DNA of 64,000 bases from the NCBI RefSeq assembly GCF_963921235.1, contig NC_086097.1, forward strand, positions 39,186,001 through 39,250,000. The letters are read 5' to 3'. Position 1 is the stretch's first letter, and each line of letters starts with the position of its first letter. Of the stretch, positions 1 through 59,452 are shown piece after piece. The position numbers and the translations under genes are program-made. Origin of the DNA: Mobula hypostoma (taxonomy: Eukaryota). The notes below the pieces were generated by a model that searched no databases, was not told the origin of the DNA, and saw nothing but the letters and a program-made list of their open reading frames with translations.

Positions 1-1
1 A

Positions 2-1588
2 ATTGCCACATTCTAGTTTATCTTTACCCTCTTTAGGAATAACTGAAATAATCGCTTCTCTCCAGGAAGGTGGAGTTTCTCCTCTCTGCAAGATCCAATT
101 AAAGGTGTTAAGTAGTAATGGGGCTAACTGTGTCTTCAGGGACTTGTACCACTCTGAGGTAAACCCATCAGAACCCGGGGACTTTCCAGCCTTTAACCTA
201 GAGATGGCCACATTCAGTTCTTTGACAGTTACTAGTTCTAATAAACTTTCATTTTGTAAATCTGTAAGTTTAGGTAGATCTAAAAAATTCAATACACTGT
301 CTATATAGGGCTCATTGGGGGCCCGGGGTTGGGAGTACAGCTCTCGATAATATGTTTCAAAACTCTCTTGAATTTTCCCTATTGTACTCTCCACAAGCTT
401 TGTCTTTGGATTCTTTATTTTATGAATTGTATTGTCTGCTTGTTGTTTTCGTAATTTATATGCTAATAATCTAGCTGATTTACCTCCTACTTCATAATTC
501 TTTTGTCTCAGGTAAAGAAAATTTCTTTGAGTTTCCAATGTATAAATATCATCAATTTCACTTTGCAATTTCCTAATTTCCTGTTTTCGATTTGAATTAC
601 TTTTGTTGCTATCTACAACTTGAAGTTGTTTTAATTTTCCTTGAAGGTCTGCTAATTTTTGTGCATTGATTTTTTTCATGTGAGTAGTAATGGAAATAAT
701 TTTCCCTCTCAGTACAGCTTTCAATGTATCCCATAAAATCACTGGTGATGTTTCTCCTGTGTCATTAAGGTCTAGATATTCTTTGATTTCTCCCCTTAAT
801 TTCTCCATTACTTTCGGGTTATTGAGTATATGTGAGTTTAGCCTCCATAGTGTTTTCCTCATTTTCCTTTCCAGGATTAGAGACATAAAGACTGGGCTAT
901 GATCCGACAGATCAATTGTTGCAATATTACAGTTTTTTATCCTGAGTCTATCTGTATTAAAGATAAAGAAATAGTCTATCCTTGAATAGGCTGAATGAGG
1001 GAAAGAGTAATATGTATAATCTTTACTAGTAGGGTGTAATTCCCTCCAGACATCTATAATTCCCAACTCCTCCATCAATGAATTCACTTTCCGAGTCAGA
1101 GGTTTATTCTGAGTAACTATTCTTGAAGAATCTAATATAGGATTTAATCTAATATTAAAATCCCCTCCACAAATTACTACCCCTCGAGAACTGACCATTA
1201 GGTCAAAAATGTGTCTATAAAATGACCATTCACTACCTGGAGGAGCATAAACATTCAGCAATGTTATTTCTGTACCTTCTATTCTTCCTGTGATTTTTAC
1301 AAACCGTCCTTCTTTGTCTCTAGTCTCTGAAATATGTTCATAATTAAGAGTACTTGATACTAAAGTAGCTACCCCTCTTTTGTGACTCAATTTATATGAT
1401 GAATAAAATACATGCTTAAAGCCCATTCTTTTTAATTTTCCATGTTCAGATTGGCTCATATGTGTTTCCTGGAGGAAAGCTATTTGTGCCCTCTCTTTTT
1501 TCAATTTAGACATGATCTTATTTCTTTTAATTGGATTCAAAACCCCATTGACATTATAGGAAATTATTTTTACCAATTCAGTTTGCAT
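2..1588 (-). CDS. L1 ORF2p N-terminal part (APE endonuclease up to RT start), open to the window edge
   Basis: Begins MQTELVKIISYNVNGVLNPIKR...FLQETH and ends ...EAIISVIPKEGKDKLECGN in the same frame. No stop-terminated ORF is reported for this frame. Confidence 0.88.
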   Translation of the reverse strand, partial: MQTELVKIISYNVNGVLNPIKRNKIMSKLKKERAQIAFLQETHMSQSEHGKLKRMGFKHVFYSSYKLSHKRGVATLVSSTLNYEHISETRDKEGRFVKITGRIEGTEITLLNVYAPPGSEWSFYRHIFDLMVSSRGVVICGGDFNIRLNPILDSSRIVTQNKPLTRKVNSLMEELGIIDVWRELHPTSKDYTYYSFPHSAYSRIDYFFIFNTDRLRIKNCNIATIDLSDHSPVFMSLILERKMRKTLWRLNSHILNNPKVMEKLRGEIKEYLDLNDTGETSPVILWDTLKAVLRGKIISITTHMKKINAQKLADLQGKLKQLQVVDSNKSNSNRKQEIRKLQSEIDDIYTLETQRNFLYLRQKNYEVGGKSARLLAYKLRKQQADNTIHKIKNPKTKLVESTIGKIQESFETYYRELYSQPRAPNEPYIDSVLNFLDLPKLTDLQNESLLELVTVKELNVAISRLKAGKSPGSDGFTSEWYKSLKTQLAPLLLNTFNWILQRGETPPSWREAIISVIPKEGKDKLECGN

Positions 1589-1950
1589 TTTTCTCTAGTA
1601 GAAAAAAAGCACTCTCCTTTTCTAACCAAACAGTAAGCAATCCCTTCTCAACTGTAAACCAAGACATATAACCACACCCTAGACATTTCTGAACGTATAA
1701 CATTTGAAAATTTTTCCCGACTTCCCACAGTGAGGCCTGAGCACCGACCCGCCTCAGTTCAGAGGGATAACCTCTATCTTCACCCTGTGTTAGAGGGCCC
1801 TCAGCAGTTTGAATAATCATAGAGAATTCTCTCCTATTTATGTCTCGACCATATTGCTATCATTCAAGTTATTCCGCCTAGTTTATTTTCAGTTACCAGT
1901 TTTCATTTTACTTTTAAGTCCGATTTACTCTTTTCAGTCATTTCTCTTAA

Positions 1951-2931
1951 TTAATCTGTATTCTCTGTACATTCGCGTCTGAATATTTGCAGCTTTTCCT
2001 TGTAGTTTGACACTCTGGTTCGAGTGGAGCGTCCTCGCCCCACTAACTGCCACGACTTCTGCCGAATCCTCTCCAGTAGCGACTCCGGTTGGGTGATAAC
2101 TTTAATAGGTAGTCCCCAGTCCGCCAGGTCCAACGTTGCCTCCTCCACCGTAGCGTAAGTTTTTGTCCCTTCGTCGTAAAAGACTCTCAGCCGAGCTGGA
2201 TACAGGGTCTGGAATCTGATGTTGTTTTCCTTCAGGACTCTCCGTGTTTCCGTATATTCCTTCCGTCTGGCAAGAATCCCCGGTGCGTAGTCGTGGTCTA
2301 AACTGATTTTGCAGTTGTTCCACATGAAACCTTGCTTTTGCCATGCTCTTTTAAGCACCTCTTCCTTCATTCTGTAACTGAGAAATCTGATCAGAATCGA
2401 TCTGGGCTGGGCGCCTGCCGGAGGCTGTGGTGCCAACGCGCGGTGAGTCCTTTCTATCTGTAGGTCTTTTGCGGCCAGTATATCAAGGTTCTCTCTAAGC
2501 AGCTTCTCTATGAAGGGAATCATCAATCCGGGTTTACCTTCGGTTCCTTCGGGAACTCCGTAGATCCTCACATTTTCCCTTCTCGAGCGGCCTTCTTGAT
2601 CTATTAGTTTCCACTGGAGTTGTAGCTTCAGCATTTCTGCTATCACTTCCTCGGCGTTTTGTAGCTTCTCTTCAATTCCAACAATCCTCGCTTCGGCTTC
2701 ATCTATCCACGAGTTAGTTTTTACTATTTCTCCTTTAATATCTTCCAGCTGTTTGCTGTTATCTTGTCGGAACTCGCGAATCTCTCCGAGAATCAAAGAC
2801 AGAGTCACCGATTCCCCCTCATTATCTCCGTCCTGGCTTGCCGTGGGGGAGCTAGGCCCGTCGCCTTGCTGCATCTCTTTATGTTTATCAGCCTTCGAAG
2901 CGGACTTTTTATTCTTGTTCTTAGACATCAT
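1951..2931 (-). CDS. L1 ORF1p (coiled coil, RRM and CTD; Transposase_22-like), 326 aa
   Basis: Motifs DQEGRSRRENVRIYGVPE, ERTHR and LYPARL. Confidence 0.9.
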   Translation of the reverse strand: MMSKNKNKKSASKADKHKEMQQGDGPSSPTASQDGDNEGESVTLSLILGEIREFRQDNSKQLEDIKGEIVKTNSWIDEAEARIVGIEEKLQNAEEVIAEMLKLQLQWKLIDQEGRSRRENVRIYGVPEGTEGKPGLMIPFIEKLLRENLDILAAKDLQIERTHRALAPQPPAGAQPRSILIRFLSYRMKEEVLKRAWQKQGFMWNNCKISLDHDYAPGILARRKEYTETRRVLKENNIRFQTLYPARLRVFYDEGTKTYATVEEATLDLADWGLPIKVITQPESLLERIRQKSWQLVGRGRSTRTRVSNYKEKLQIFRRECTENTD

Positions 2932-3067
2932 CCTTGCCCCTTTTATTAATATAGTTATGCAATATTAAGTATTTGTCTAAATTCGATTTTGGGGCAGTTT
3001 ACCTTCTTTTTTGTCGAGAGACCTTTTCCTTACGCCGCCATTCCCTTGGTGACCCGGAAGTCCCCCC

Positions 3068-3603
3068 TGGCCAAACATTTTAATTCTGATTCCCATTCTG
3101 ACATTTTGATCCATGGCTGGCTCTTGTGCTAAGATGAGGCCACCCTCAGGCTGGAGGAGCAACACCTTGTATTCCATGTGGGTAGTCTACAACGTGATGG
3201 TAAGAATATTGATTTCTCTTCCCATTTAAAAATAAAATTCCCTTCCCCCCCCCCTTCTATTCCCCACTCTGCCCTCTTACCTCTTCTCACCTGCCTATTA
3301 CCTCCTACCGGATCCCCTCCTCCCCTTTCCTCTGTGCTCCATTCTCCTTTCCTATCAGATTCCTCTCCAGCCCTTTATCTTTCCCACCCGGCTTCACCTA
3401 TCGCCTTTTAGTTATCCTCCTTCCTCTCCCCTACCTTTTTATTCTGGTGCCTTCCCCCTTCCTTTCCAGTTCCAAAGAAGTGAATATGCCTGAAATGTTA
3501 ACTATGCATTCATTTCCATAGATGCTGCCTTACTTGCTGAGTTCCTCCAGCATTTTGTCTGTTGCTTTGGATTTCCAGCAATCTGCAGCCTTAGTCGTGT
3601 TTA
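3068..3603 (+). mobile_element. Degraded Penelope-like element 3' fragment with pLTR
   Basis: GIY-YIG C-terminus-like sequence (LRLEEQHL), pyrimidine tract, decayed hammerhead and gatgctgcct...ctgcag tail as in the other copies. Confidence 0.8.
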
Positions 3604-3849
3604 TAAATCAGTCCTGTCTTTTACCTTTGACAAGTGACCTGATGTTTTTCTTCAATGCTTCGAAACAAGTTGTACCTCTTTGTCTCCTAAGTAGTATTGG
3701 TATCTAGTTGATTCTTTTAATTTTGAGAGGCATGGAATTCTGGTTTGCTTTCTCCAAGAGTTATTGCCTCTCTGTTTGAATACTGAATTTGGATTTGAAA
3801 TGTTAAACTATCTCATAGAATTGTGGGAGATGACAGGATGGAGGACTGA

Positions 3850-6690
3850 CTGTAAAAATGAGTGATCAGCTGGCTTGAGGGACGTGAGGGACGTAAGGGG
3901 CATCAGGGAAGGGTAGCACCTCTGGTGGGACAGACATGTTGAGCTCCCTTCAGAGTAGCCTGCCCACCATTGGTCCCCACTTGGCACTCAGCTGTCACCT
4001 ATGGCTCCAAGCAGCTGTTTGCTGGTGACAATGGTCACACCCTGGTAAACAGCTTTGAGTGTGCTAAACTTGAAGGTAACTGATGGGTCTTAAACCCTTG
4101 GTCAGTTTGGACTTGCCTACCCAAGCGAGTGAAGACTGGACCTGGCAGACTGTGCCAAGGTAACCACTAGTTTGGTTCCAGGGGCAGTAGGGTGGACCCA
4201 GCAAGGCACTGTGGAGTGCTTGGAGTGCAACAAAGCACTAAGGATGTCATGATCATCCTCTGCATCTAACCCCATCTCCAGTCGTCTTGACTTTGTCTTG
4301 CCATTGGATACACAGATGAGTGAGTGACACTGCGCAACTCTTCCTCACTTTAAACTGTCTTCGCGCAAGTCAGTCTCGTCTATCCTCCTCATCCCAAACT
4401 GGTGACAGGCTAGCAATGAAGCGACAAGTGTGGGTACACTGGCAGCCGTAGCTGCAAACCAGCACACTGGTGGTGGCTCAGGCCCTGGGGTCATTATCCA
4501 CTGACATGGAGCAGCAGTGACTTTCAGCAGCCACCTGGACGGCTGAACAGCCCTTGTCAGAAATGCACTGCTCACCTCCATGGTATGAGGTGTTCCTAGA
4601 AAGAGTGCCTTGAACGTTGGCTGCTCCATTCTATCCCTGGCTAGTTTACTGCAGCTGGTGGGGACCTTATCAAAGTGTCTGAAATACATCAAAGAGAAAA
4701 TTAAGGAGTATTCCACTCATTCTTGATACATGGAATGTGCACACACTGTTGGACAGAATCGATGCTGATAGACCTTAGAGGAGATCTGCTGTACTAGGGA
4801 GAGAGCCCGATATAACACTGATATCACAACCTTGAGTAAGACCTGGCTTGCAGGAGATGGCAAACTTTGTGAAAGGGCACAGGATACACATTCTTTTGGA
4901 TAGAAGAGGAAATTAAGACTGATGTGAGGCTGGGATTGGATTTGCAGCGAAGCACCTGGATCATATGCAATATGTGCTGAGGGTTACAAAGAAAGCAGTG
5001 CAGTGCTAACAGAAAAGTTCCATCAGCTTTTCCAACTCCTGTGGCAGCAAGTGACAATTTCACAGGTATTAAAAGACGCATCCATCATCCACCTGTATAA
5101 GCGAAAGGGAAACCAACAGTCCTGCAACAGCTACTGGGGAGTACCCTTGCAGTCTATCACAATCGAGATGTTTGCCAGCTTCTTCTCAACTATCTTACAT
5201 CAGACCTAAACTGGGGACTCCTACCAGAGAGCCAGTATGGATTCCTGAAAGAGAGTGGGACCATCAACATGGTGTTTGCTGCAAGAGAAATGTCAGGAGT
5301 AAAACGTTGACCTGCTCTCCCGCTATGTTGATCTGACTAAGGCCTTTGACACTGTTAGCAGAGATGATGTGTGGAAGCTCATGGTGCAGTACGGATGTCC
5401 AAGGAAATTCATCACCATGGTGTAGCAATTCCATGATGGCATGCAAGCTAGAGACCATGGTGAGACATCTGAGCCCTTCCCTGTTTCAAAGGTGGTCAAG
5501 CAGGGCTATATCTTGGTGCCAATGCTATTCAGTTTGGTGTTTACCACCATGTTGACTGATGCCTTCAGAAACAACGATGTACGATGTAGGCATCAGCATC
5601 AGATTCCGCACTGATGGGAATCTCTTCAACCTCAGGAGGCTTCAAGTAAAAAATTAGGTTATGACAGACATCATCAAAGACTTCCCTCTTTTCCGATGAC
5701 TGTGCCCTCAATGCTGGTTCAAGAGATGGAAAAGATGATGTGCAGCACTGTGCTGGTAAGTTTTCTGATGTGTGTACCAACTTTGGGCTTACTATCAACG
5801 CCAAGAAGACTGAAGTAATGCATCAGCTAGTTCCAAGGTAATCATACATTGAGCCAAGCAACAGAATCAATGGTCAAAGATTTAACCCAGTGAACAGGCT
5901 CACATATCTTGGCAGCACACTGTCCCAAAACATTGTTATTTATGATGAAGTAAATGGCCAGGATCGCCAAAGCAAGTGTAGCCTTTGGCAGACATTATAC
6001 CAATGTTTGGAACAGAAGATGGATAAGTCTACAGACAAAGCTGAAGGTGATATAGGACCATAGTACTTCCTACTCTGCTTTACACCAACATGGACAGTGT
6101 ACCAACAAATGCCAGGAAACTGAATCATTTCCACAAAGTCTGCCTCCAAGGCTCTTCAACATTAGGTGGAAAGACAGAATTGCTGACACTGAGGTATCTA
6201 CCAAGGTGGGCCTGCCCATTATTATACCACCCTGTAGCAGTCCCAGTTACACAGGGCAGTTCATGTAGCTTGTATGCCAGACCATTGGCTGCCCAAGAGG
6301 CTGCTTTACAGCAAACTACAGAAGGGAAAGCATTCCCATGGAGTCCAGAGGAAATGCTATAAAGATGCCCTGAAAACTTCACTAAAAGATTTTGGCATCA
6401 ACCCAGACACATGGGAACATTTTGCCAAGGTTGAGTGGCACTCCTCCTTCCATAAGGGTGCAGTGATTAGTGACACATGAGGCAGAAAACACAATTGCAG
6501 CAGAGAGACGTTGGCTGGCCAGGAAAGCCTGGGCCAACAACTCCCCAACCCAATGTGGCTGCCATCTTTTATCCACATTGCCAAAAATTGGCCTCTTCAA
6601 GTATCTGTGTACCCACAGCTCAATCCTGCCCCTACAAATCGCGGATGATTAGGGTAGTTCTCATCGTTGCACAATGGACGAACAAACTGA
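3850..6690 (+). mobile_element. Degraded RTE-clade (BovB-like) LINE
   Basis: Frameshifted EN/RT pieces: WNVHTLLD, GYTFFW, IHLYKRKGN, LPESQYGF, DLTKAFDTV, YLGSTLS, LPKRLLYSKL. The 5' boundary is approximate. Confidence 0.82.
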
Positions 6691-6758
6691 CTTGAAACTA
6701 AATTCTTATCTGTTATTACGTAGCCCCTTAAAAATCGGTCTTCACTGTTGCTTGTTAC

Positions 6759-6850
6759 CTTTGTTTTATGACCCAATGAGGTAAATGGGACTGCTTGCCT
6801 CTCTTGAGATTGGCTATTTCTTGTCATCTGTTGAATCGGTTCTTCCATGT
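6759..6850 (-). CDS. Second coding exon of the nested antisense gene ((D)MEEPIQQMTRNSQSQERQAVPFTSLGHKTK)
   Basis: tatttttgtattttag acceptor in phase 1 (G+AC gives Asp), AAG|GTAACA donor; 92 nt, open frame. Confidence 0.65.
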
Positions 6851-7639
6851 CTAAAATACAAAAATAAATATTAATTTCAACAATTTTTACTCTAGATTTT
6901 AAACAGGACAGAATAAAGTTACTGTGGAAATGTGAAATACACAATATATAAGCTTCCTTTTAAGAAACTTATGGAGTTTGTTTCTATTTGCTATTGCTGT
7001 GGAATTTAAACTGTTATTGTGTGGTTTACAACATCTGCGAATGATGCAGACTACTAAACTGTGTTTATTGAGAGGGATTATTATCTCTGTTGTTTAATGC
7101 CACGATGAGGTTATTTGCTTACCTTGATTCAGTCATTCAGAGAAATAAGATGCACTGCTTTGCAAGTATCTCATAATTGTTTTCCTTTCAGTGCATCAAT
7201 GGTAAATGCTCCAACATCTCATAACATCTAATTCTTGAGACAAAAAAAAAATTCTCCTCAATTTGCCAACTATTTTATTTGTGGTCTCCTAATGGAAACA
7301 TTTCTATTTTTTGTTTATCATATCAAACTCCTTCATAAGTTTAAAGATCTCTAGCAATCATTAGGTAATATTACACACAACATCTATTATAATGTGTATT
7401 ATAACTAAGAAAAACATGAATCTGGTCTTGATAGTTGGACACTTATCTTGTAGCGAAGAACATTTACAAGCAGCAAAATGGATAAAATGTGAAGCAGCCG
7501 CGCATCATACAGGGTCAAAATCACACATTTCGGATATTGACGAATAAGGGGAACAGGATCTTAAAGGATTGAAACCAATTAGGAAGGAGAAAAACAGAGG
7601 GAGCTGAAGATAATGGTTGGAGTTAGTTAGCAATAATTA

Positions 7640-7932
7640 CAACTCCATCACTAAGGATCTTCACCACTTGAGTCATGCCCTCGTCTCATTACTACCATCA
7701 GGTGGGGGTACAGGAGTCTGAAGACCCGCACTCATATGCTCTAAGAATGGCTTCTTCCCCTCTGACATCAGTTTCTGAATGGTCTATGAACACTAACTTT
7801 CTATTCCTATTGTGCACTGTGTATCTGTTACTTATTGTAACTTATAATATGTTTATGTCCTGCACAGTGTTGCCGCCACAAAGCAACTACTTCCACCAGG
7901 TAGGTCAGTGATAATAAAACTGGTTCTGATTT
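7640..7932 (+). mobile_element. Rex1/Babar-type LINE 3' fragment
   Basis: LLPSG...NSFFP-like end and ataataaa...ctgatt tail shared with other Rex copies in the window. Confidence 0.6.
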
Positions 7933-8862
7933 TGAGAGGAAACAGTACCCAAAATTACTTTTGATCAAAGCCACTCAATGTGAACGAGCCTACTGAATCT
8001 CCGTTTTCTTAGTTAAAGGCTAAGGCATATTTATGTTGATGATCATGTAAAAATTCTAAGCTTTGTATGAGTAACTGTTCCTGAAGTTTATTTTATATAA
8101 CAAGTCATTCCTGCCAGTTTTAAAAGGGATCTGGTATTTTGATTCAATTATCTGCTTCAGTTCAATTACTTTGAAACTGGACTGACAAGTATCTCCCAAG
8201 ACTAAAATCAGCTCTTTTTTTGGACAAAGGAGTCTTATTGATAGATCTCCAGTCATTCCTATCCTCCCAGAGTTTAGCTTTAATTATAGTTATTAAGTTG
8301 GATTTTTTGTTTCAAACTCCTTTGTTTTGCGTCCTACACAAGATGCTGAGCGCTTCTCATCGAAGAGTTTCATTTTTTTTTGGTACTGAGTAACAATCAA
8401 ATCAGTTCCTGAAAAAGGGTTCAGAGCTATCTTGCACTGATGGAAAATAAGTACTACGAGGTCGGGGGTGGGGGGGGGGAATTAATGGAGAAAATGAAAG
8501 TTTATGGTTGCTTTTATTTTACACAATTTATTTACTAATACTGATCAATTTTTTTGTAGAAGGGACTTTAAATTGACTATTTTCTTGATTTGGGTGTAGG
8601 ATCTAATTCAAATGGAAACAATCAGGTTGTTTTCTCCCAATTACGAAAGGTGTCCAATCGTAGTAAACTGGTCCTTGTAAAAATCTTACATTGGAGACCT
8701 GCCACAATAGCTGTTTTTTACAAGGTTGATTTGGATACATGTGGTAAATGTCGATTATATGAAACAGTAATGTTTCGTGTTAACAACCCCTATGACGGGA
8801 GAAGAAGTTGTTTTAAAATAACTGCTCAATTGCAATACAAACACGGAAATAATATATCCTAC

Positions 8863-9070
8863 CTCTTGGCACATCCACCTGGTGACAGCGGCCAACGTCT
8901 TGCCAGTATGTGAAGAGATCGTCGTCATCATGCGCGTTTTCGTCGTCTCCGCTGTTGTGGTAAACCACCTCCGACTCCGTATCATCGGTCACCGACTCTA
9001 AATCCTCCAGGCTGATCAGAAAGCGACCCGACCGCCTGCCGCTTTCAGCGCTCCGTCCCTGACCCTCCAT
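8863..9070 (-). CDS. First coding exon of an unidentified gene nested antisense in a FANCM intron (MEGQGRS...DDDDLFTYWQDVGRCHQVDVPR)
   Basis: CpG-rich ORF with no repeat similarity. ATG directly follows a tttcacag acceptor; G|GTAGGA donor in phase 1 matches the next exon. Confidence 0.72.
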
Positions 9071-9258
9071 CTGTGAAATCCGGATCGTTTTATGATAGAC
9101 CTTTAAACGAGCAAAAAAATAGTGCAGTAAAGACGTATTTTGTTAAAGGATACGTGAATGCAGGAGCCATGATACTTTCCAGAAGATAAAATTAATTAGG
9201 ACCATCTGGTATTGAACTCGGTCATAATGCTTTATTAGTTGCTTCTTTGGGGACTTAC

Positions 9259-9530
9259 CTCGAAGTGAAGCGCTGTCTACTCCCACGAGTTTGTTTCTGT
9301 CTGGAGCTGGGGCAGCTTGTGGCGATCACAGAGGGGGAGGGACTAAAATGAGAAACAAGTTTACGCTGATCAAGTGTCGAATAAGGGGAGGAACCATAGA
9401 TTGGAGCAACGTAACACAGTGAAAGGTTCTGGTCAGACTGAAATCGCTCAGCGTCTCCGAATGAATAAACTGAATTGCTAGACTGGCTTTCTTCATTACT
9501 GATGCGCTAAATCGGTTACCAGAACGCTTT
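9259..9530 (-). promoter_or_regulatory. Putative 5' UTR exon and promoter of the nested gene
   Basis: Consensus donor GAG|GTAAGT at 9259/9258; CpG-enriched; purine-rich GGGGGAGGG box near 9333; CCAAT on the minus strand at 9400-9404. Outer boundary is approximate. Confidence 0.45.
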
Positions 9531-10804: not shown

Positions 10805-10900
10805 ATAAAATACTGGAGGAACTCTGCAGGTCATGCAGCATCTATGGAGGGAATAAGCAGTTGATGTTTCAGGCTGAGACCCTTCATCAGGATTGAAAAA
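10805..10900 (-). mobile_element. Solo PLE pLTR fragment with decayed hammerhead
   Basis: Reverse complement reads CCTGATGAAGGGTCTCAGCCTGAAACATC. Confidence 0.75.
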
Positions 10901-10927
10901 CGAAGAAGCCGTCTATAGAAATTTGTA

Positions 10928-11632
10928 GAAACACAAACGCAAGAAAATCTGCAGATGCTGGAAATCCAAACAACACACACAAAATGCTGGAGAAACTCAG
11001 CAGGCCAGGCAGCATCTATGGAAAAGAGTAAACAGTCAAGGTTTCAGGCTGAGACCCTTCATCAGGACTGGAAAAAAAGATGAGAAGTTAGAGGAAGAAG
11101 GTGGGGGGAGGAGAGGAAGTGGTACGTTGATAGGTGAAACTGGGAGAGGGGGAGGGATGAAGTGGTGAAGTAGAGCTGGGAAGTTGATTGGTGAAAGCGA
11201 TGAATAGCTGGAGAAGGGGGATTCTGATGGAAGAAAGGGAAGGGGGAAGAAGCTACCAGAGGTAGGTGATGGGCAGTTAAGAAGATAAGGTGGGACAGAG
11301 TAATGGGAATGGGGAATGGTGAAAAGGGAGGGGGGGGGAGGGACAGTTACCAGAAGTTTGAGAAATCGATGTTCATACCATCAGATTGGAGGCTACCCAG
11401 ATGGGATATAAGGTGTTGTTCCTCCGTCCTCCACTTGATGGCATAAACATCAATTTTTCCAACTTCTGGTACCACCTGGTACTTCTTCCTCCCCTCCCCC
11501 GTCTTCTTACTCTGAGATCTCATCTTTTTTTCCAGTCCTGGTGAAGGGTCTTGGACCAAAAAGTTGACTGTTTACTCTTTACCATAAATGCTGTCTGGTT
11601 TACTGAGTTTCTCCAGTATTTTGTATGTGTTG
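10928..11632 (-). mobile_element. Truncated PLE with inverted pLTRs at both ends and a 14-bp TSD
   Basis: tatagaaatttgta at 10914-10927 and 11633-11646; EEQHL...LGSLQSDGMNIDFSNF; hammerhead-like motifs near 11034-11069 (-) and 11534-11569 (+). Confidence 0.85.
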
Positions 11633-13900: not shown

Positions 13901-14147
13901 AAGCTTGCTACTTGCTGTGAGAGGATATTAACAATGCTTTCTACGTTTGTATAGGTAGCGACAATGTAGATGCTACTACATGAGTGTCTGGAGAGAGCAC
14001 CATTACCATAAGTTGTTATGATGGGATGATGGGAGGGAATAGCATTATCCAATTGGTAATGAATAATGTTATGACAAATCAAACTAAAAGAAATTGAATT
14101 TTTGTAAGTGCCTTTCAACTATATGATATTCTCTGCTTCAATTTTAG

Positions 14148-14279
14148 GTCTTGCAAACATTCACAAGACGGCTGCACAATACTGGAACACTTTTTCATAA
14201 AGAAGTAGGAAATTTGACGAAATATCAGCTTGTTCTTTCACGTGAACAATTTAGAAAAAATCCTCCAGCAAACATTGCG
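14148..14279 (+). CDS. FANCM: FANCM coding exon (about human exon 5): VLQTFTRRLHNTGTLFHKEVGNLTKYQLVLSREQFRKNPPANIA
   Basis: ttttag acceptor and gtaaat donor; 132 nt, phase 0/0. Peptide resembles human FANCM NLTKYQIILARDQFRKNP. Confidence 0.93.
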
Positions 14280-14689
14280 GTAAATAGCTGCGCTATGAAC
14301 TTTAACATATTTAGTAAATCTAATTTTCCTCTGCCATTTTGAAATTGTATAGGAGCTTTGATATTGTTACATGGATTTTCTTGTCCTTTTATAAATTGAT
14401 AATCTGTATATTTTTCCCATATTATGTTCCGACTTCAATACTTTTCTCACTAATATTAAATAATGTAAGTGTTGTAAATTTGTTCAGTAGATTAGACATT
14501 CTCTAAACATGTTCTGTGTATCGTGTTTCCCAACACTACGGTATTTTTTTGCTAGTTCCTGATTTGCTTAAGTACATTATATGGGAAGTTATGCATTAAT
14601 AACTGTGATTGAAAGTGATGAAGCAAAGAAAGATTTCCATTTTTTCCCCCTACTCCCTTTCACGAACGTAGGGAATCTGAAAGGTCTTT

Positions 14690-19472: not shown

Positions 19473-19605
19473 GGAGTTCAACGAGGTATGATAGAAGGAG
19501 ATTATGCTATTTGTATTAGTCTTTATCATGGATATGAACTTCTGTTACAAATGGGAATGTGGTCCTTGTATACGTACCTTGAAGGCATCATGGATGGGTC
19601 CAAAG
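19473..19605 (+). CDS. FANCM: FANCM coding exon (about exon 6): GVQRGMIEGDYAICISLYHGYELLLQMGMWSLYTYLEGIMDGSK
   Basis: Polypyrimidine tract plus tcag acceptor, gtaag donor; 133 nt, phase 0/1. Resembles human GIIEGEFAICISLYHGYELLQQMG. Not in the ORF track. Confidence 0.95.
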
Positions 19606-20135
19606 GTAAGACTGTAGTGATGTGAGTTCTGAGTACTGAACCAAGGGACCAAATCTATCTTCAGTTTACTAAGTGAACATGCAGACAATAAACAAAGTGG
19701 ATATCTGTTGCATTTCATATACAGTGAATTAATCTTTCCTAAGCTTGAGTGAAACTTTTAGCTGTAAATTTAGTATGTTTTTTTAATAGAACCTGTGTAG
19801 TTAGAATTAGCTAATTGCATGGAACATTTCTCATTTGAATTCCGGGACAAAATTATTTGTTTCTATTTTCTATTTATGAATCATGTACCAAAGGTACCTA
19901 AGGCAGTACAGTAGAGTTACTTTTGATAAATTAGCATGTTGGTCATGAATTTTTGGTAGGCAGCAAGTAAACCGTCCTCTCCACCATTGTCCAAGTTCTT
20001 AGCGGGAACTTGCAGAGAGAATCTGACTCCTTTATTCCACTGAGGTCCTACACAGTGACAGAACCTTCCACAATGTAATTACATCACATGGGAAGTGTGC
20101 AGGCAAACTCAACTTACAAAATGGTTGAATAAACT

Positions 20136-20900: not shown

Positions 20901-20983
20901 ATTTGTCCCATTTATGTGAAACAAATCAATAACCCGAAGCGTTTTTGTATATGAAATAACCAATCAAACTCTACTCTATGCAG

Positions 20984-21094
20984 GAATGACACGTGCATGC
21001 AATGAACTTTGCAAGAATGCTGTTTTTATGGAGATGTATGAGCAGTTGAAAGCCATGTTCTCAAGTAGAAGTAGTCCTGCCAGTTCTCATATGG
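20984..21094 (+). CDS. FANCM: FANCM coding exon (about exon 7): GMTRACNELCKNAVFMEMYEQLKAMFSSRSSPASSHM
   Basis: gcag acceptor, gtaact donor; 111 nt, phase 1/1. Resembles human GMTRSKNELGRNEDFMKLY. Confidence 0.9.
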
Positions 21095-21759
21095 GTAACT
21101 TAGTTTTACTCTATCTTATGATATGTGCATTGAATACTGTAATAATAATGAAATGAAAACATATTTAATATGCAGGGAAAAATTATAACTATGCTTCATT
21201 TCATCACAGAAATGCCTTGGATAATTTATGGGCACCTATATATTTTGATCAAGGTCTGGTTTCAAGGATTTCTTGCTGAATTTCTTTTTGAATTGCATTT
21301 TCCATGATCATGCTGGCAAATGTGGCAAACTCCCAAAAATAGCCAAGTAAATGAATTTTCCTAACAATATTGGCACGGGGATCAGTGCTACCTTGGGCAC
21401 CACGGGGTAGTTTATCAACATTTAATTAAACTTGAAAATTGAGAAAACAGCAATCACTGCAAGTGGTAAACTGAACACATCTGTGGAAAGTGAAATAAAT
21501 AACATTTTTGTGTCTTGGACTACCGCTGTGGAAAAGAAATACTTTTTTTCTCCTACCACAGATGCAGCCTGACCTGTTAGGTTTTCCCAGCATTATCTGC
21601 ACATGCAAATCCAGTTGAAAATTTTCTTCTCTCACCTTAAAAGTTATGCCCTCCAGTATTTGAATCTTGACTATTTTTTCTAGTGCAGAATTCAAACTAT
21701 GGGAAAGAAGGAATGACCTTTTATCATTAATGTTTTTATATTCCATTTTTGATGTTTTT

Positions 21760-22650: not shown

Positions 22651-23825
22651 AGCATCTGCTCTCAGGATGAGGCTTTTCATTCTAGGACGAGGGAGATTTC
22701 TTCCTTTTTTAAAGAAAGGGGCTTCCCTTCCTCCACTATCAACTCTGCTCTTAAATGCATCTCCCCCATTTCACGTACATCTGCTCTCACTCCATCCTCC
22801 CGCCACCCCACTAGGAATAGAGTTCCCCTGGTCCTCACCTACCACCCGACCAGCCTCCGGGTCCAACATATTATTCTCCGTAACTTCCGCCACCTCCAAC
22901 GGGATCCCAACACTAAGCACATCTTTCCCTCCCCCCCCCCGCATTCCGCAGGGATCGCTCCCTACGCAACTCCCTTGTCCATTCGTCCCCCCCATCCCTC
23001 CCCACTAATCTCCCTCCTGGCACTTATCCGTGTAAGCAGAACAAATGCTACACATGCCCTTACACTTCCTCCCTTACCACCATTCAGGACCCCAAACAGT
23101 CCTTCCAGGTGAGGCATCACTTCACCTGTGAGTCGGCTGGGGTGATATACTGCGTCCGGTGCTCCCGATGTGGCCTTTTATATATTGGCGAGACCCGACG
23201 CAGACTGGGAGACCGCTTTGCTGAACATCTACGCTCTGTCCGCCAGAGAAAGCAGGATCTCCCAGTGGCCACACATTTTAATTCCACATCCCATTCCCAT
23301 TCTGACATGTCTATCCACGGCCTCCTCTACTGTAAAGATGAAGCCACACTCAGGTTGGAGGAACAACACCTTATATTCTGTCTGGGTAGCCTCCAACCTG
23401 ATGGCATGTACATCGACTTCTCTAACTTCCACTAATGCCCCACCCCCCCCGTACCCCATCTGTTACTTATTTTTATACACACATTCTTTCTCTCACTCTC
23501 CTTTTTCTCCCTCCGTCCCTCTGAATATACCTCTTGCCCATCCTCTGGGTCCCCCCCCCCCGTCTTTCTTCCCGGACCTCCTGTCCCATGATCCTCTCGT
23601 ATCCCTTTTGCCTATCACCTGTCCAGCTCTTGGCTCCATCCCTCCCCCTCCTGTCTTCTCCTATCATTTTGGATCTCCCCCTCCCCCTCCAACTTTCAAA
23701 TCCCTTACTCACTCTTCCTTCAGTTAGTCCTGACGAAGGGTCTCGGCCTGAAACGTCGACTGCACCTCTTCCTAGAGATGCTGCCTGGCCTGCTGCGTTC
23801 ACCAGCAACTTTTATGTGTGTTGCT
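22651..23825 (+). mobile_element. Young 5'-truncated Penelope-like element (GIY-YIG endonuclease end, pLTR, intact hammerhead)
   Basis: VIYCVRCSRCGLLYIGETRRRLGDRFAEH; near-TSD tgaaaa(a/c)cttatg at 22638-22650 and 23826-23838. Confidence 0.92.
23726..23761 (+). ncRNA. Minimal type I hammerhead ribozyme (PLE pLTR)
   Basis: AGTC-CUGACGA-AGG(gtctcgg)CCT-GAAAC-GUC^GACU: complete core, stems I and II, palindromic ACGU stem III. Confidence 0.85.
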
Positions 23826-24410
23826 TGAAAACCTTATGCACAGATTTAAAAACAGAACTGGCAGATTGCCTGGCCATCTGTTCTATATTTACAGGCTCTT
23901 GTAATGTACACAGTTTTTTTTTGTCTCCCATAAGTACTACTGGTATTTGGCAACCTGCACAGATAATAGTTCCAGGGGCCAGTGCATAATTTACAGTGCT
24001 TCTGTTCACTTTGATACAAAAATAGAAATACAACTTTTAAATTCCGAAAAGGGGTTGCTTTTAGTCTTGTATCAATCAAGCAACAATACATAAATTGGCT
24101 CTTAAGGAATGATTGCAGCATTTTTGTTGGTTCATACTGATCCTAGTGGATTCAATTATTTATTACAACATAACAAAACTGAATTATTTGATTTACCCTT
24201 TCATTTAATGTCTATATAGAAAATAAACTGGTAGACAGCAAGGTATCTCCATTCATAAGGAGCACTGTAATTTTTTTTTGCCTGACATTGTAATTTTGGT
24301 GATTATTAATAATCCTGCTTATTCAATTATATCTTACTGTGAATGGTTTGCACCGTTTGACATGTTTGTCATTCCAATATTCATCAATTTGATAAAATGA
24401 TTTATTTTAG

Positions 24411-24509
24411 GATCGGAAAATAAAAAGCAATTCATCTACAGTCACCCTAAGTTAAAAAAGCTCGAAGAAGTTGTAGTGAACCACTTCCGATCTTGGGCAG
24501 CATCTAGAG
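24411..24509 (+). CDS. FANCM: FANCM coding exon (about exon 8): GSENKKQFIYSHPKLKKLEEVVVNHFRSWAASR
   Basis: ttttag acceptor, gtaatg donor; 99 nt, phase 1/1. Contains the YSHPKLKKLEEVV FANCM signature. Confidence 0.95.
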
Positions 24510-24939: not shown

Positions 24940-27900
24940 ACATAGAAACATAGAAAACCTACAGCACAATACAGGCCCCTTCGGCCCACAAAGTTGTACC
25001 GAACATGTCCCTACCTTAGAAATGACTAGGCTTACCCATAGTCCTCTATTTTTCTAAGCTCTATCTACCTATCCAAAAGTCTGTTAAAAGACCCTATCGT
25101 ATCCGCCTCCACCACCGTTGCCGGCAACCCATTCCATGTGCTCACCATTCTCTGCGCAAAAAAACTTACCCCTGACATCTCCTCTGTACCTACTCCCCAG
25201 CACCTTGAAACTGTGTCCTCTTGTGGCAACCATTTCATCCCTGGGAAAAAGCCTCCGACTATTCACACGATCAATGCCTCTCATCATCTTATACACCTCT
25301 ATCAGGTCATCTCTCATCCTCCGTTGCTGCAAGGAGAAAAGGCCGAGTTCACTCAACCTGTTTTCATAAGGTATGCTCCCCAATCCAGGCAACATCCTTG
25401 TAAATCTCCTCTGCACTCTTTCTATAGTTTCCACATCCTTCCTGTAGTGAGGTGACCAGAACTGAGCACAGTACTCCAAGTGTGGTCTGACCAGGGTCCT
25501 ATATAACTGCAACATTACCTCTCGGCTCTTAAACTCAATCTCATGATTGATGAAGGCCAATGCACCGTATGCCTTCTTAACCACAGAGTCAACCTGCGCA
25601 GCAGCTTTGAATGTCCTATGGACTCGGCCCCCAAGATCCCTCTGATCCTCCACACTGCCAGGAGTCTTACCATTAATACTATATTCTGCCATCATATTTG
25701 GCCTACCAAAATGAACCACTTCACACTTATCTGGGTTGAACTCCATCTGCCACTTCTGAGCCCAGTTTTGCATCTTATCAATATCCCATTGTAACCTCTG
25801 ACAGCCCTCCACAATATCCGCAACAGCCCCAACTTTTGTGTCATCAGCAAACTTAATAACCCATCCCTCCATTTCCTCATCCAGGTCATTTATAAAAATC
25901 ACAAAGAGTAAGGGTCCCAGAACAGATCCCTGAGGCACACTACTGGTCACCGACCTCTATGCAGAATATGACCCATTTAGAACCACTCTTTGCCTTCTGT
26001 GGGCAAGCCAGTTCTGGATCCACAAAGCATTGTCCCCTTGGATCCCATGCCTCCTTACTTTCTCAATAAGCCTTGCATGGGGTACCTTATCAAATTCCTC
26101 GCTGAAATCCATATACACTACATCTACTGCTCTTCCTTCACCAATGTGTTTAGTCACATCCTCAAAAAATTTTAATCAGGCTCATAAGGCACGACCTGCC
26201 CTTGACAAAGCCATGCTGACTATTCCTAATCATATTATACCTCTCCAAATGTTCATAAATCCTGCCTCTCAGGATCTTCTCCATCAACTTACCAACCACT
26301 GGAGTAAGACTCACTGGTCAATAATTTCCTGGGCTATCTCTACTCCCTTTCTTGAATAAAGGAACAACATCCGCAACCCTCTAATCCTCTGGAACCTCTC
26401 CCGTCCCCATTGATGATTCAAAGATAATTGCCAGAGGCTCAGCAATCTCCTCCCTCGCCTCCCACAGTAGCCTGGGGTACATCTCATTCAGTCCCGGCAA
26501 CTTAACCAACTTGATGCTTTCCAGAAGCTCCAGCACATCCTCTTTCTTAATATCTACATGCTCAAGCTTTTCCGTCTGCTGCAAGTCATCACTACAATCA
26601 TCAAGATCCTTTTCCATAGTGAATACTGAAGTAAAGTATTCGTTAAGTACCTCTGCTATTTCCTCCGGCTCCATATACACTTTCCCACTGTCACACTTGA
26701 TAGGTCCTATTCTTTCACGTCTTATCCTCTTGCTCTTCACATACTTGTAGAATGCCTTGGGGTTTTCCTTAATCCTGCCCGTCAAGGCCTTCTCATGGCC
26801 CCTTTTGGGTCTCCTAATTTCCTTTTTAAGCTCCTTCCTGTTAGCCTTTTAATCTTCTAGATCTCTAACATTACCTAGCTCTCTGAACCTTTTGTAAGCT
26901 TTTCTTTTCTTCTTGACTAGATTTATTACAGCCTTCGTACACCACGATTCCTGTACCCTACCATAACTTCCCTGTCTCATTGGAACATACCTATGCAGAA
27001 CTCCACACAAATATCCCCTGAACATTTGCCACATTTCTTCTGTAGTTTTCTCTGAGAACATCTGTTCCAAATTTAAGCTTCCAATTTCCTGCCTGATAGC
27101 CTCATAACTCCCCTTACTCCAATTAAACACTTTTCTAACTTGTCTGTTCCTAGTTCTCTCCAATGCTATTGTAAAGGAGGTAGAATTATGATCACTATCT
27201 CCAAAATGCTCTCCCACTGAAAGATCTGACACCTGACCAGGTTCATTTTCCAATACCAAATCAAGTACAGCCTCTCCTCTTGTAGGCTTATCTACATATT
27301 GTGTCAAGAAACCTTCCTGAACACACCTAACAAACTCCACCCCACGTAAACCCCTTGCTGTAGAGAGATGCCAACCAATATTTGGGAAATTAAAATCTCC
27401 CATCACGACAACTCTTTTATTATTACACCTTTCCAGGATCTGTTTCCCTATCTGCTCCTCGATATCCCTGTTACTATTGGATGGCCTATAAAAAACACCC
27501 AGTAAAGTTATTGACCCCTTCCTGTTCCTAACCTCCACCCACAGAGACTCCGTAGACAATCCCTTCATGACGTCCACGTTTTCTGCAGCCGTGACACTAT
27601 CTCTGATCAACAGTGCCATGCCCCCACCTTTTTTGCCTCCCTCCCTATCCTTTCTAAAACATCTAAAACCCGGCACTTGAAGTAACCATTCCTGTCCCTG
27701 AGCCATCCAAGTCTCTAATGGCCACCACATCATAACTCCAAGTATTGATCCACGCTCTAAGCTCATCTGCTTTGTTCACAATACTCCTTGTGTTGCAATA
27801 GACACATCTCAAACTATCGATCTGAGTGTGTCCCTTCTCTATCACCTGCCTATCCTCCCTCACACACTGTCTCCAAGCTTTCTCTATTTCTGAGCCAACC

Positions 27901-29109
27901 GCCTCTTCCCCAGTCTCTTCAGTTCGGTTCCCACCCCCCAACAATTCTAGTTTAAACTCGCCCCAGTAGCCTTAGCAAACCTCCCCCTGGGATTTAAGTG
28001 CAACCTGTCCTTTTTGTACAGGTCACTTCTGCCCCAAAAGAGGTCCCAATGATCCAGAAATCTGAATCTCTGCCCCCTGCTCCAATCCCTCAGCCACACA
28101 TTCATCCTCCACCTCATTCTATTTCTATACTCACTGTTGCGTGGCACAGGCAGTAATTCCGAGATTACTACCTTTGCGGTCCTGCTTCTCAAATTCCTTC
28201 CTAACTCCCTGTAGTCTTTTTTCAGGACCTCTTCCCTTTTCCTGCCTATGTCATTGGTACCAATATGTACCACGACCTCTGGCTGTTTTCCCTCCCACTG
28301 CAGGACATCTTGGATGCAATCTGAAACATCCCGAACCCTGGCACCTGGGAGGCAAACTACCATCTGGGTTTCCTGTGTCCACAGAATCGCCTGTCTGACC
28401 CCCCTAACTATAGAGTCCCCTATCACTACTGCCTTCCTCTTCCTTTCCCTACCCTTCTGAGACACAGGGCCGGACTCTGTGCCAGAGGCACGGCCACTGT
28501 TGCTTCCCCCAAGTAGGCCGTCCTCCCCAACAGTACTCAAACAGGAGTACTTATTGTCAAGGGGGACAGCCACGGTACCTGACTCTTCTCCTTCCTTCTC
28601 CTGACTGTTACCCACTTGTCTGTCTCCTGTGGTCCCAGTGTGACCACCTGCCTGTACCTCCTTTCTATCACCTCCTCGCTCTCCCTGACCAGACGAAGGT
28701 CATCGAGCTGCAACTCCAGTTCCCTAACGCGGTCCCTTAGGAGCTGCAGCTCAACACACCTGGTGCAGATCTCGCCGTCCGGGAGGCTGGGAGGCTCCAG
28801 GACTTCCCACATCTGACACCAAGCACAGAACACTGGCCTCACACACATACTACTTCCTTTCCGCAATTAACACAGGTAAATCTACCTCGCCTCGTCCCGT
28901 TACCGCCTAAGCCTGTTGAGGCAAAGCCCTATCACTCTGCCACCTTTCACTCCGCTGCCCGCTGGATATGGCGGTCTTCTTTTTAAACTTTTCCCGCTCT
29001 ACTGGCTGACGTCACGCACCTGTACAGTCTTGCCTCTCTTTTACCCCGAGTAGTAAAATGCCTTCGCTCCAAAAATCCTGAGCTGTTCCACTTGCAGCCT
29101 TCTTGCTCC
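24940..29109 (-). mobile_element. Apparently full-length CR1 LINE (about 4.2 kb) with zinc-finger/SGNH-esterase ORF1 and disrupted EN-RT ORF2, nested in an older CR1
   Basis: 7-bp TSD aaatata at 24933-24939 and 29110-29116; (TTTCTATG)n tail; GDS..GTND..DRLH esterase motifs; GDFNFP, SDHN and KFADD. Confidence 0.92.
27947..28866 (-). pseudogene. CR1 ORF1 (CxxC/CxxC zinc finger, coiled coil, SGNH/GDSL esterase), frameshifted
   Basis: CAWCQMWE, CTRC, VIGDSIVRG, CLPGARV, HIGTND, DRLHLN. Confidence 0.85.
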
Positions 29110-34330: not shown

Positions 34331-34414
34331 ATCCTAAAACCATGTGCCTTCATTCCAGATTCCCCACAGGTGGAAGCATACTTTCAGCATGTCTTTGTGG
34401 CTTATTTTTCCTAG

Positions 34415-34605
34415 ATCCAAATACTTCTGGTGGAAAAGATGATAGTGGAAATACTCGTGTTATGATCTTCTCCTCGTATCGGCACAGCGTTCAAGAGATT
34501 GCTGAGATGCTTAGCAATCATCGGCCTCTTGTGCAAGTCATGACCTTTGTTGGGCATGCTTCCGGAAAGAACACTAAAGGATTTACACAAAAAGAGCAGC
34601 TTGAG
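34415..34605 (+). CDS. FANCM: FANCM coding exon (about exon 9), helicase motif IV: DPNTSGG...TRVMIFSSYRHSVQEIAEML...GHASGKNTKGFTQKEQLE
   Basis: ttttcctag acceptor, gtaac donor; 191 nt, phase 1/0. Near-identical to the human FANCM segment. Confidence 0.96.
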
Positions 34606-36071
34606 GTAACTTGGATTTGTGAACCAAGAAAATGATATAGTTAATGCATATAATTGCTAAAACAAATTATAGAAACATAGAGTTTTTACATTACAAGAGG
34701 CCATCAGTCTAGAATAGCTCTTAGAAAAGAATTCATTTTAGTGGTACAAACCCAAAGCCCTGTAAGTTTCTAGTTCTCACGTATACTTTCAAGACACTGT
34801 TTCTCTTTCCATCATCTTGACCGGTGGTGAATTCCTGATTATAAATATATTCTGAGTTTAAAAAAGTATCTGTTTTTATTTTTTTTAAATTTTGAATCTG
34901 TTTCCTGTTCTTCTTGGAGTATGTGCTGAGAAGAACAGCTATTTAAACCAGCATAATTTTGAACATTTGTATCGCACTTCCTCTCAAAATCTTTAATCGA
35001 AGAAAAAAAACACCTCATCTTCTTTACTCTAACTTTACAGCTACAATCTTAAATCTGTAAAATTACTCCTCACCATCTGGGAAGATGCACATTATTCCTA
35101 AAATGTGGTAGCAATAATACTTGAGGATACAATTATTCCAGTTTTTTATACAGCATTAATTTAACTTTACCACTCCTGATTTCTGTGCCACCTATTTATA
35201 AATCTTAGGAGTTTAATATGCTTTACCAACCACTCTCTCAACGTGCCTTGTCATTTCCAGGAATTCAAGTACATTTCTTCTTTCCTGTACACATTTTAGT
35301 GTTGTATTCCCAGTTTATATCATCATTCTTGCCAAACATCTATGATTTCACGCTTCTTACATTAAATTTCTTCTACCACTGTCTGTCTCTTCATCCAACC
35401 CCTATCTATGTCATCTTGTTGTCTTATACTAGACACTACAGGGTTCTACTATACTTTCAAGCTGTGTGTCATCTACAGTTGTGGAAATTATGCACTGTAC
35501 CTCCATGTCCAAGCATGTCTGCTGCCATCCTCCAATCTGGAGGGGGGTGAAAAAACAGCCGTTCACTACTGCTATTTGTTTTCTACCTTCAGACTGTGTT
35601 CTAATCAGTGCTGCCACTAACCCTTTATTTGCATGATAAGAGACATTCAATTAACCCCTGAAAAAATTGGGAACTTTATTGAATGAAAACTAGTGGATTG
35701 ACCCATGTTCTTAAAAACATCACCCATTAGTCACTTAATTAGACACTACTTGTAACTAGTAGTGAAGAGTTCCACAAAGCCACTTTCAATCATAGAATGG
35801 CAACATGACAGAAAGAGATTATTTGACCATTTGTTTATGTGTTGCTCTCAACCCTCACGTGGACACTTTTCTACAAGCCCTATGCACATCTCCTAGCCGT
35901 ATAATTACTGAGTTTCCTCTTAAAAGCAAGAGAACTTTTTCATCATGTATACAGGGAATATATTCCTCATTCCATAAAAAAGGGACAAATACTTGAATTT
36001 CTCTTACATTTAAAAAATTTTTTTGCCTGTCTGTATTCTCTCATCCTTGATTGTTCTACTAGTATTCTGTC

Positions 36072-40632: not shown

Positions 40633-40839
40633 GTAATGAGGTGCTTTCGTGAAGGTGGATATAATGTATTGGTTTCTACATGCGTTGGGGAAGAAGGACT
40701 GGACATTGGGGAAGTTGACCTCATTATTTGCTTTGATGCTCAAAAGAGCCCTATTCGAATGATACAAAGAATGGGCCGAACAGGCCGGAAGCGAGAGGGC
40801 AGAATTGTGGTTCTTCTTGCTGAAGGACGAGAAGAACGG
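40633..40839 (+). CDS. FANCM: FANCM coding exon (about exon 10), helicase motifs V and VI ([23 protein letters not shown])
   Basis: ttag acceptor, gtgagt donor; 207 nt, phase 0/0. Canonical SF2 motifs V and VI. Confidence 0.97.
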
Positions 40840-47500: not shown

Positions 47501-48291
47501 AAATTAACAAAGTCCGAGTCCTGAAGCAACAGCGAATTAAAACGCCATTGTCTATTATTTGGTATATTGGCCATAATTTTAATAGAAAGCTTAAGTGGAG
47601 CATGATCCGAAATGGTTATAGAATCATAATCACATTTAATCACTGAAGGAATAAGACGAGAATCAATGAAAAAATAATCAATTCTTGAATAGGAATGATG
47701 AACATGTGAAAAGAAGGAAAAATCTTTTTCCTGAGGATGCAGAAAACGCCAAATGTCCATCGACCCAGAATCAGAAAGGAAAAAATTAATCAGATTTGCA
47801 GATTTATTAGGTAAAGTCCGTAAAGGAGCCGAACGGTCCAAAGCTGGAGACAAACAGGTATTAAGATCTCCGCCCCAGATCAATGAAAACTCGTTCAAAT
47901 TCGGAAACTGATCAAACAATGATTTATAAAATTCCGGACAATCCATATTAGGAGCATAAACATTAACCAAAACTACTTTTTTATTAAATAGTAAACCACT
48001 AACCAATAAAAATCTACCATTCGGATCAGAGATAATATCCTGTTGTATAAAAGTAACTGAGGAATCTATAAAAATAGAGACGCCTCGAATCTTAGCATTG
48101 GAGTTCGAATGAAATTGTTGTCCCTTCCAGAATTTGAAAAAACGTAGTCTGTCCCCCCTCCGTACATGGGTCTCTTGTAAAAATAAAATTTGTGCTTTAA
48201 GTCTCCGGAACACTTTAAAAACTTTTTTCCTTTTAATAGGATGATTAAGACCGTTAGTATTCCAGGAGACAAAATTAATAATAGACTCCAT
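44514..48291 (-). CDS. L1 ORF2p (APE endonuclease, RT, C-terminal Cys/His), split by one extra T in a T9 run at 47472-47480
   Basis: SWNTNGL, LQETH, GGDLN, SDHAP; YRPISLLN, DAEKAFD, QGCPLSP, YADD; CDRC..HMFWSC. Confidence 0.9.
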
Positions 48292-59205: not shown

Positions 59206-59452
59206 ACCTACAACCAAAGTCAGTGTTCCAAGAGGAGCATTTACAAAACCATTATAGGAAATGGTAACAAGTCGTTTCGCCTTTACGCTAATAGTCCACG
59301 AATGGTTCCAAATGGTCTAAATCCTGCTGCATACAAGATGTACATAACTACTGGAGAATACGAATCAAATAATATATCAAGAATTACAACAAAGCATGGA
59401 AGAAAGTCGGGTGTTGTACTTCCAGAATCATTCATGTACAGCCGATGTCCAG
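59206..59452 (+). CDS. FANCM: FANCM coding exon (about exon 11): TYNQSQCSKRSIYKTIIGNG...SPRMVPNGLNPAAYKMYIT...SRCP
   Basis: tttcag acceptor, gtatga donor; 247 nt, phase 0/1. Resembles human IYNQSQSNKRSIYK...SPRMVPDGINPKLHKMFIT. The donor choice is less certain. Confidence 0.9.

Follow-up and report, generated by a model that had tools for sequence, protein, structure and literature searches.

The region at positions 6759–9530 of a 64,000-nucleotide (nt) stretch of the Mobula hypostoma genome (contig NC_086097.1, positions 39,186,001 to 39,250,000 of the forward strand; the whole stretch is hereafter called the window) is, with a probability of about 0.95, the 5′ part of the annotated minus-strand gene soul3. 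It comprises a 5′ untranslated region (UTR) exon and coding exons 1 and 2 of five, its 5′ end lies in a CpG island, and the gene is nested antisense in intron 4 (~33 kb) of FANCM. The gene is already known, being annotated and belonging to a known family. A preliminary description of the region, made from the letters of the sequence, had arrived at the correct gene model and had left the gene without a name; it is annotated as soul3 in Mobula hypostoma and belongs to the SOUL/HEBP family. Beyond the annotation, the analysis contributes splice variants of the 5′UTR (an intron of 158 or 188 nt and an alternative exon further upstream) and states outright that the gene is nested in FANCM intron 4.

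All elements of the gene start were read directly on the minus strand. The upstream 5′UTR exon ends at 9259 with the donor CGAG/GTAAGT (the slash marks the exon border), and the acceptor tttcacag/ATGG stands directly before the start codon at 9070. Coding exon 1, 208 nt long, runs from 9070 to 8863 and ends in phase 1 at AGAG/GTAGGA. It is followed by an intron of 2012 nt with GT..AG ends (6851..8862), after which the acceptor ttttag/AC at 6851/6850 opens coding exon 2 (92 nt, 6850-6759, ending in AAAG/GTAACA), which encodes residues 70–100. The exon pieces contribute 69 and 31 residues and, joined in phase 1, give 300 nt without a stop and a peptide of 100 amino acids (aa). The splice motifs, start codon, exon lengths and CpG richness listed in the preliminary description were all found in place, and translation of the joined frame gives exactly the same 100 aa. 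Beyond coding exon 2, positions 1..6758 form the window part of a ~13.8-kb soul3 intron toward coding exon 3, as located by tblastn and the genome search. The CpG observed/expected ratio reaches 1.02 at 8501–9000, 1.19 at 8751–9250 and 0.86 at 9001–9500, compared with 0.33 for the whole window. The resulting CpG island over the soul3 5′ end (8501..9500) is the presumed promoter of the gene. Of the earlier proposal of a promoter within the intron, the CpG-island 5′ end belonging to the gene itself was thus recovered, while its promoter role is what we infer.

The identity of the gene was obtained from a protein search, in which the exon 1 peptide matched "heme-binding protein soul3 [Mobula hypostoma]" (265 aa) in all of its 69 residues (100%), followed by Mobula birostris soul3 isoform X2 (96%) and Pristis pectinata soul3 (74%). 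The full 100-aa peptide equals residues 1–100 of the annotated protein, so that both coding junctions deduced from the letters agree with the public model. Two accessions exist for this one protein, XP_062903184.1 and XP_062903193.1, which fits the presence of 5′ variants. With the 265-aa protein as query, its own genome gave five collinear minus-strand coding exons on one contig (E 1e-10 to 8e-39), which tblastn on the window and its flanks located at 9070-8864, 6851-6756, -7063..-7215, -7730..-7915 and -10563..-10736, negative numbers being window-equivalent positions to the left. Identity per exon was 91–100%, the shortfall arising where alignment ends overrun exon borders. The last three coding exons lie 7.1–10.7 kb left of window position 1, in agreement with the earlier view that a real, spliced coding gene extends further to the left. 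In the 3.48-Gb genome, coding exon 1 matches at one place only, and the next matches of the full protein have E values of at least 0.15, so that soul3 is a single-copy gene rather than a repeat.

Elsewhere in the genome, on contig C45 at 104974292-104978355 on the plus strand, weak collinear matches to the SOUL domain of soul3 (E 0.15 and 0.63) probably mark a distant paralogue of the HEBP type. The public annotation of a related ray lists soul3 isoforms with lengths of 231 and 195 aa; the C-terminus of the 231-aa form differs after residue 210, possibly because alternative splicing at the 3′ end cuts the SOUL domain short.

To follow the splicing of the gene, contigs of four sequencing runs from two studies were aligned to the window; five runs had been guessed to be RNA, none being recorded as such, with a word share of 0.12–0.20. 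Runs X1, X2 and X4 come from organism A, whose exon pieces differ from the window in 0–1 letters, and run X3 comes from organism B, a close relative with few differences. The joint 6850/8863, which skips 2012 nt with minus-strand GT..AG ends, is present in all four runs and confirms the junction 8863>6850 deduced beforehand. The second exon (8863..9100), made up of 30 nt of 5′UTR (9100-9071) followed by the coding part with residues 1–69 and the first base of codon 70, is covered by contigs in 4/4 runs. Furthermore, the reverse complement of loose contig ends at 6759 (X2, X3 and X4) encodes soul3 residues 101–110, so these ends belong to exon 3. Because contig cover is limited to exons and repeats and the joints are canonical GT..AG, we take the contigs as transcripts. 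The evidence is drawn from the covered parts, which exclude the introns and the sequence upstream of 9397.

A 5′UTR intron leaving the donor at 9259 is also present in all four runs, and it exists in two forms. The 188-nt form (intron 9258..9071, joint 9070/9259) was found in X3 of organism B only, one run of four. In X1, X2 and X4, a 158-nt GT..AG intron (9258..9101, minus strand) uses the acceptor tttaaag/G located 30 nt upstream, and the exon resumes at 9100; in the alignments this joint appears as 9098/9257 with "cut +2". The junction 9259>9070 of the preliminary description is therefore that of organism B, while organism A, in three of the four runs, uses the upstream acceptor. The strong Kozak context that splicing had been said to create needs this junction, which is unused in the three same-species contigs, and holds only for the organism B form. 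The soul3 coding sequence is unchanged by the choice of intron, and since the 114-nt 5′UTR contains no ATG, 9070 is the first start codon in both forms. The 5′UTR exon itself was placed at 9259..9342 on the minus strand, with contigs reaching 9323 (X1), 9317 (X3) and 9349 (X4); either transcription starts near 9317-9342 or the exon opens at an acceptor, ttttag/TCCC, at 9343/9342. A 2937-nt contig of X4 carries 76 loose 5′ letters, the first 30 of which match 10812-10841 exactly. This single contig of a single run indicates an alternative upstream 5′ non-coding exon at 10805..10887 (minus strand; partial at its upstream end), with the donor TATTTTAT/GTAAGT (10804-10799) joined to the acceptor at 9343. 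The sequence of the alternative exon looks repeat-derived. Beside it, the motif ctgatgaagggtctcagcctgaaac is present twice, ~170 nt apart, within 10870-11080 of the minus strand, apparently a short interspersed repeat present in two copies.

The protein encoded by the complete gene contains a complete SOUL domain (PF04832) that Pfam places at residues 92-261 (E 6.5e-45); the match spans profile positions 6-172 of 173 and scores 153.7 bits, the cut-off being 27. A protein atlas search gave the same SOUL family assignment. A sequence search of the PDB with soul3 retrieved human HEBP2 (4ayz, E 2.8e-21) and HEBP1 (2hva, E 4e-19). The AlphaFold model, built from an alignment of 23 sequences, has a mean predicted local distance difference test score (pLDDT) of 71.9, with domain blocks mostly at 84–92. 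Its modelled strands (92-122, 157-179, 197-212, 241-263) and helices (126-145, 217-230) are those of the HEBP fold, in which a curved antiparallel sheet packs on two long helices. In line with this, the ten top Foldseek matches in the PDB are all HEBP1 or HEBP2, with template modelling (TM) scores, normalised to the target, of 0.77–0.84; the best is 7oon_B (E 4.6e-13, TM 0.84). Further toward the N-terminus, pLDDT stays below 50 in residues 1-47 and has block means of ~71–76 in two helices, at 49-62 and 69-81. As modelled, the 265-aa product would thus consist of a disordered acidic tail (1-47), two conserved helices (49-62 and 69-81) and an alpha/beta domain of the SOUL/HEBP type (92-263).

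Relatives of this protein are widespread among vertebrates. A full-protein search gave 229 relatives at E ≤1e-5 among 571 candidates, and names were read for 103 of the best 120. These named relatives represent cartilaginous and ray-finned fishes, coelacanth and lungfish, amphibians, and turtles, crocodile, lizards and birds; no mammal was found among the 103 named proteins in the best 120 of 229. Sauropsid and amphibian relatives are called "heme-binding protein 2(-like)" or "1-like", names that we read as similarity-based. In the 23-sequence alignment, I19-x-L-E-D-L24 is nearly invariant and is followed by a variable acidic linker, and W56, R61, H63, V65, V67, M71, P74, I75 and Q77 are invariant. 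The extension carries the conserved motifs I-x-L-E-D-L and L-x-Y-W-Q-x-V-G-R-x-H-x-V-x-V, and the orthologue group is marked by an extension of ~90 residues with ITLEDL and YWQxVGRxHQVDV, (nearly) invariant in the 23 sequences. The N-terminal extension is found in 22 of 22 aligned orthologues, one of which (coelacanth) is N-terminally incomplete. Mean identity to the ray protein is 19% in the linker (27-51), 73% in the conserved block with the second motif (52-80) and 69% in the part encoded by coding exons 3–5 (101-265).

HEBP1 (p22HBP) and HEBP2 (SOUL) are non-covalent tetrapyrrole binders. By analogy, the soul3 domain probably binds heme or another tetrapyrrole non-covalently, in a hydrophobic cleft, and would serve as a cytosolic buffer or carrier. 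This presumption derives from the behaviour of HEBP1 and HEBP2, backed here by the titles of structure entries for heme-bound HEBP1 and HEBP2. The soul3-specific extension encoded by exon 1 may act as a docking or regulatory module, as its conservation suggests. Within it, an acidic run followed by W-x-x-V (residues 47-59) resembles an LC3-interaction motif; the model puts this stretch in a helix, which speaks against such a candidate.

A different view of the protein is that its main role lies in protein-protein signalling rather than in heme handling, the conserved N-terminal extension being the working part. Roles in cell death and in ALG-2 binding are reported for HEBP2, the solved ALG-2/HEBP2 complex (5gqq) is among the fold matches, and soul3-specific conservation is strongest in the helices of the extension (49-81), which the Pfam domain does not include. 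However, the SOUL domain is the best-conserved part of the protein, with a mean identity of 69% and many invariant residues, which indicates a ligand-binding domain under constraint. We regard a primary signalling role as rather unlikely.

Several points weigh against the identification of the region as the start of a transcribed soul3 gene with a heme-binding product. The RNA nature of the runs is a guess ("RNA?"), the GT..AG joints being the argument for transcripts. Identity to HEBP1 and HEBP2 is just 28–32% in the structural matches. Exon 1 is overall weakly conserved (mean 42%), and the tail at residues 1-47 is the part modelled with low pLDDT.

The position of soul3 relative to FANCM was established by tblastn with the FANCM proteins of Mobula hypostoma (isoform X2), Amblyraja radiata and Heterodontus francisci. 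In the window, plus-strand matches lie at 14148-14279, 19473-19613, 20983-21099, 24407-24508, 34414-34608, 40633-40872 and 59203-59451, and left of it at the window-equivalent positions -19243..-19058 and -21912..-21562. On the same strand, the FANCM MHF-binding domain (PF16783, 85.3 bits) follows 5.5–6.9 kb past the right end of the window. Against the whole genome, the Heterodontus protein places the first FANCM coding exon ~42 kb left of the window and gives four exon matches upstream and the fifth at 14124-14282. This exon numbering is to be read with the reservation that very short exons could escape a similarity search with a stricter first look. The left edge of the host intron is accordingly coding exon 4 (-19243..-19058, plus strand), and its right edge is coding exon 5 (14148-14279, plus strand), located with the three FANCM proteins. 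The soul3 coding exons, from 9070 to -10736, and the alternative exon, to ~10887, all lie on the minus strand within this intron of ~33.2 kb. As FANCM coding exons 4 and 5 flank the soul3 exons on the opposite strand, soul3 is nested antisense in FANCM intron 4, just where the preliminary description had put it, upstream of exon 5. A Pfam search of 86 window frames, mostly of at least 100 aa, returned transposon-type domains only and no helicase exon. In the annotation, FANCM isoform X2 has its own first exon of 29 residues between coding exons 3 and 4 (window-equivalent -20205..-20119, plus strand) and is without the DEAD-box N-terminal part; it is an alternative-promoter form, which would lack helicase motif I.

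We treat this nesting as a positional fact with no demonstrated regulatory meaning. It could be argued that the antisense position is functional, in that head-on transcription or shared chromatin links the expression of soul3 and FANCM and that the nesting is kept by selection. The gene does lie wholly within the FANCM transcription unit on the opposite strand, and soul3 and FANCM are on equal-sized contigs in four of four elasmobranchs in which both were seen (Mobula hypostoma, Amblyraja radiata, Heterodontus francisci and Leucoraja erinacea). A weak hint comes from the soul3 and FANCM accessions, which are 2–3, 14 and 33–42 apart in three species and ~580 apart in Heterodontus, an order that need not track position. 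On the other side, contig sizes and accession numbers bear on nesting in other species only indirectly, and antisense nested genes are common in long vertebrate introns, mostly without demonstrable interference. A functional link of this kind is, in our view, doubtful. A broader proposal would hold that the nesting is ancestral to jawed vertebrates and was kept by selection because a gene for heme handling and one for DNA repair are coupled by head-on transcription, with mammals then losing soul3 from this intron, and/or that the conserved extension of acidic tail and helices has a docking function that no studied HEBP has; this we consider speculative and improbable.

It is highly improbable that the region holds a novel, lineage-restricted gene of no known family. 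Residues 1-69 are without a Pfam match, the domain lying at 92-261, and nothing corresponds to them in the human and mouse HEBP chains of known structure, whose alignments begin at residue 71 or later. The same extension, however, recurs in all 22 aligned orthologues, the remaining protein is a standard SOUL domain, and public annotation names the gene and gives two XP accessions for it in this species. Annotated identity, SOUL domain and orthologues in many vertebrate groups together rule this reading out. Of the earlier suggestion that the gene is "lineage-restricted or lost in mammals", the first half does not survive orthologues from cartilaginous fishes to birds, while loss in mammals fits the named best matches.

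The idea of a chance open frame or transposon fragment with splice-like motifs and no gene could draw on the repeat-rich window (L1-like, other long interspersed nuclear element (LINE) and Penelope-like domains) and on its 232 stop-to-stop frames of at least 70 aa, among which an open frame by itself is not above chance, but it has practically no standing and is ruled out by the full identity (100%) with an annotated protein whose SOUL domain is complete, the uniqueness of exon 1 in the genome, the spliced contigs in 4/4 runs and the orthologues across jawed vertebrates. The identity to the annotated protein, the single genomic match of exon 1 and the junction-bearing contigs are what lift this frame above chance. 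As the preliminary description had said, the region resembles no transposable element: the frames at 8816-9142 and 6600-6959 match no transposon family in Pfam, and the gene is single-copy.

Several repeats surround the gene. An L1-like element at 5-2964 (minus strand) lies inside the long soul3 intron, with a 530-aa endonuclease frame that runs past the left edge of the window and a 337-aa open reading frame 1 (ORF1). A near-complete L1-like element at 44517-49933 (minus strand), with a 306-aa ORF1 (Transposase_22), a 323-aa endonuclease and a 993-aa reverse transcriptase with zf-RVT, sits in a FANCM intron, the one bounded by exons 40633-40872 and 59203-59451. A different type of LINE, at 25087-28699 (minus strand), has a GDSL-lipase/OSK-like esterase frame followed by endonuclease and reverse-transcriptase frames, and a GIY-YIG nuclease frame was found at 22917-23432 on the plus strand (E 6.8e-5), a domain typical of Penelope-like retroelements. 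Within the soul3 intron, the segment 7621-7953 stands out in each of the four runs by its very high summed depth of contigs, which peaks at 387 in X1, and by numerous partial contigs and loose ends; it is a transcribed or abundant repeat outside the soul3 gene proper.

The importance of the region goes little past annotation quality. A reading of the raw sequence without tools nevertheless recovered the correct two-exon gene start and the FANCM nesting. Our literature search found no work on a gene nested in a FANCM intron and, among the papers listed and at the level of abstracts, no functional study of vertebrate soul3 and no work on soul3 evolution, most papers on "soul3" concerning plant or algal SOUL3. 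In a passage of a fish transcriptome paper, soul3 is listed among genes up at warm temperature (PMC11835285). Judged from these abstracts, vertebrate soul3 appears functionally unstudied, though its conservation extends from rays to birds, with an apparent absence from mammals.

Comparison with known proteins places the gene more precisely. The region is identical to the annotated Mobula hypostoma soul3 and represents the same gene, and with the soul3 orthologues the protein shares a common length (~263–285 aa), the N-terminal extension and the SOUL domain. Human HEBP2 (4ayz, 3r8j, 5gqq) belongs to the same Pfam family and has the same fold (TM 0.79–0.80). In contrast, its sequence identity to soul3 reaches the 28–32% given above, and it is without the 70-residue extension encoded by exon 1. 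The N-terminus of human HEBP2 aligns to soul3 residues 72-77, at the start of coding exon 2, and exon 1 therefore encodes an extension absent from the solved mammalian paralogues. The human HEBP2 gene is not known to lie at the FANCM locus. The best structural match is HEBP1 or p22HBP (heme-bound mouse HEBP1 7oon, together with 2hva and 2gov), at 29% identity, although HEBP1 is shorter (chains of 186–195 residues) and has neither the acidic tail nor the pair of conserved N-terminal helices seen in soul3. Since soul3 is about equally far from HEBP1 and HEBP2, it is a third paralogue and the orthologue of neither.

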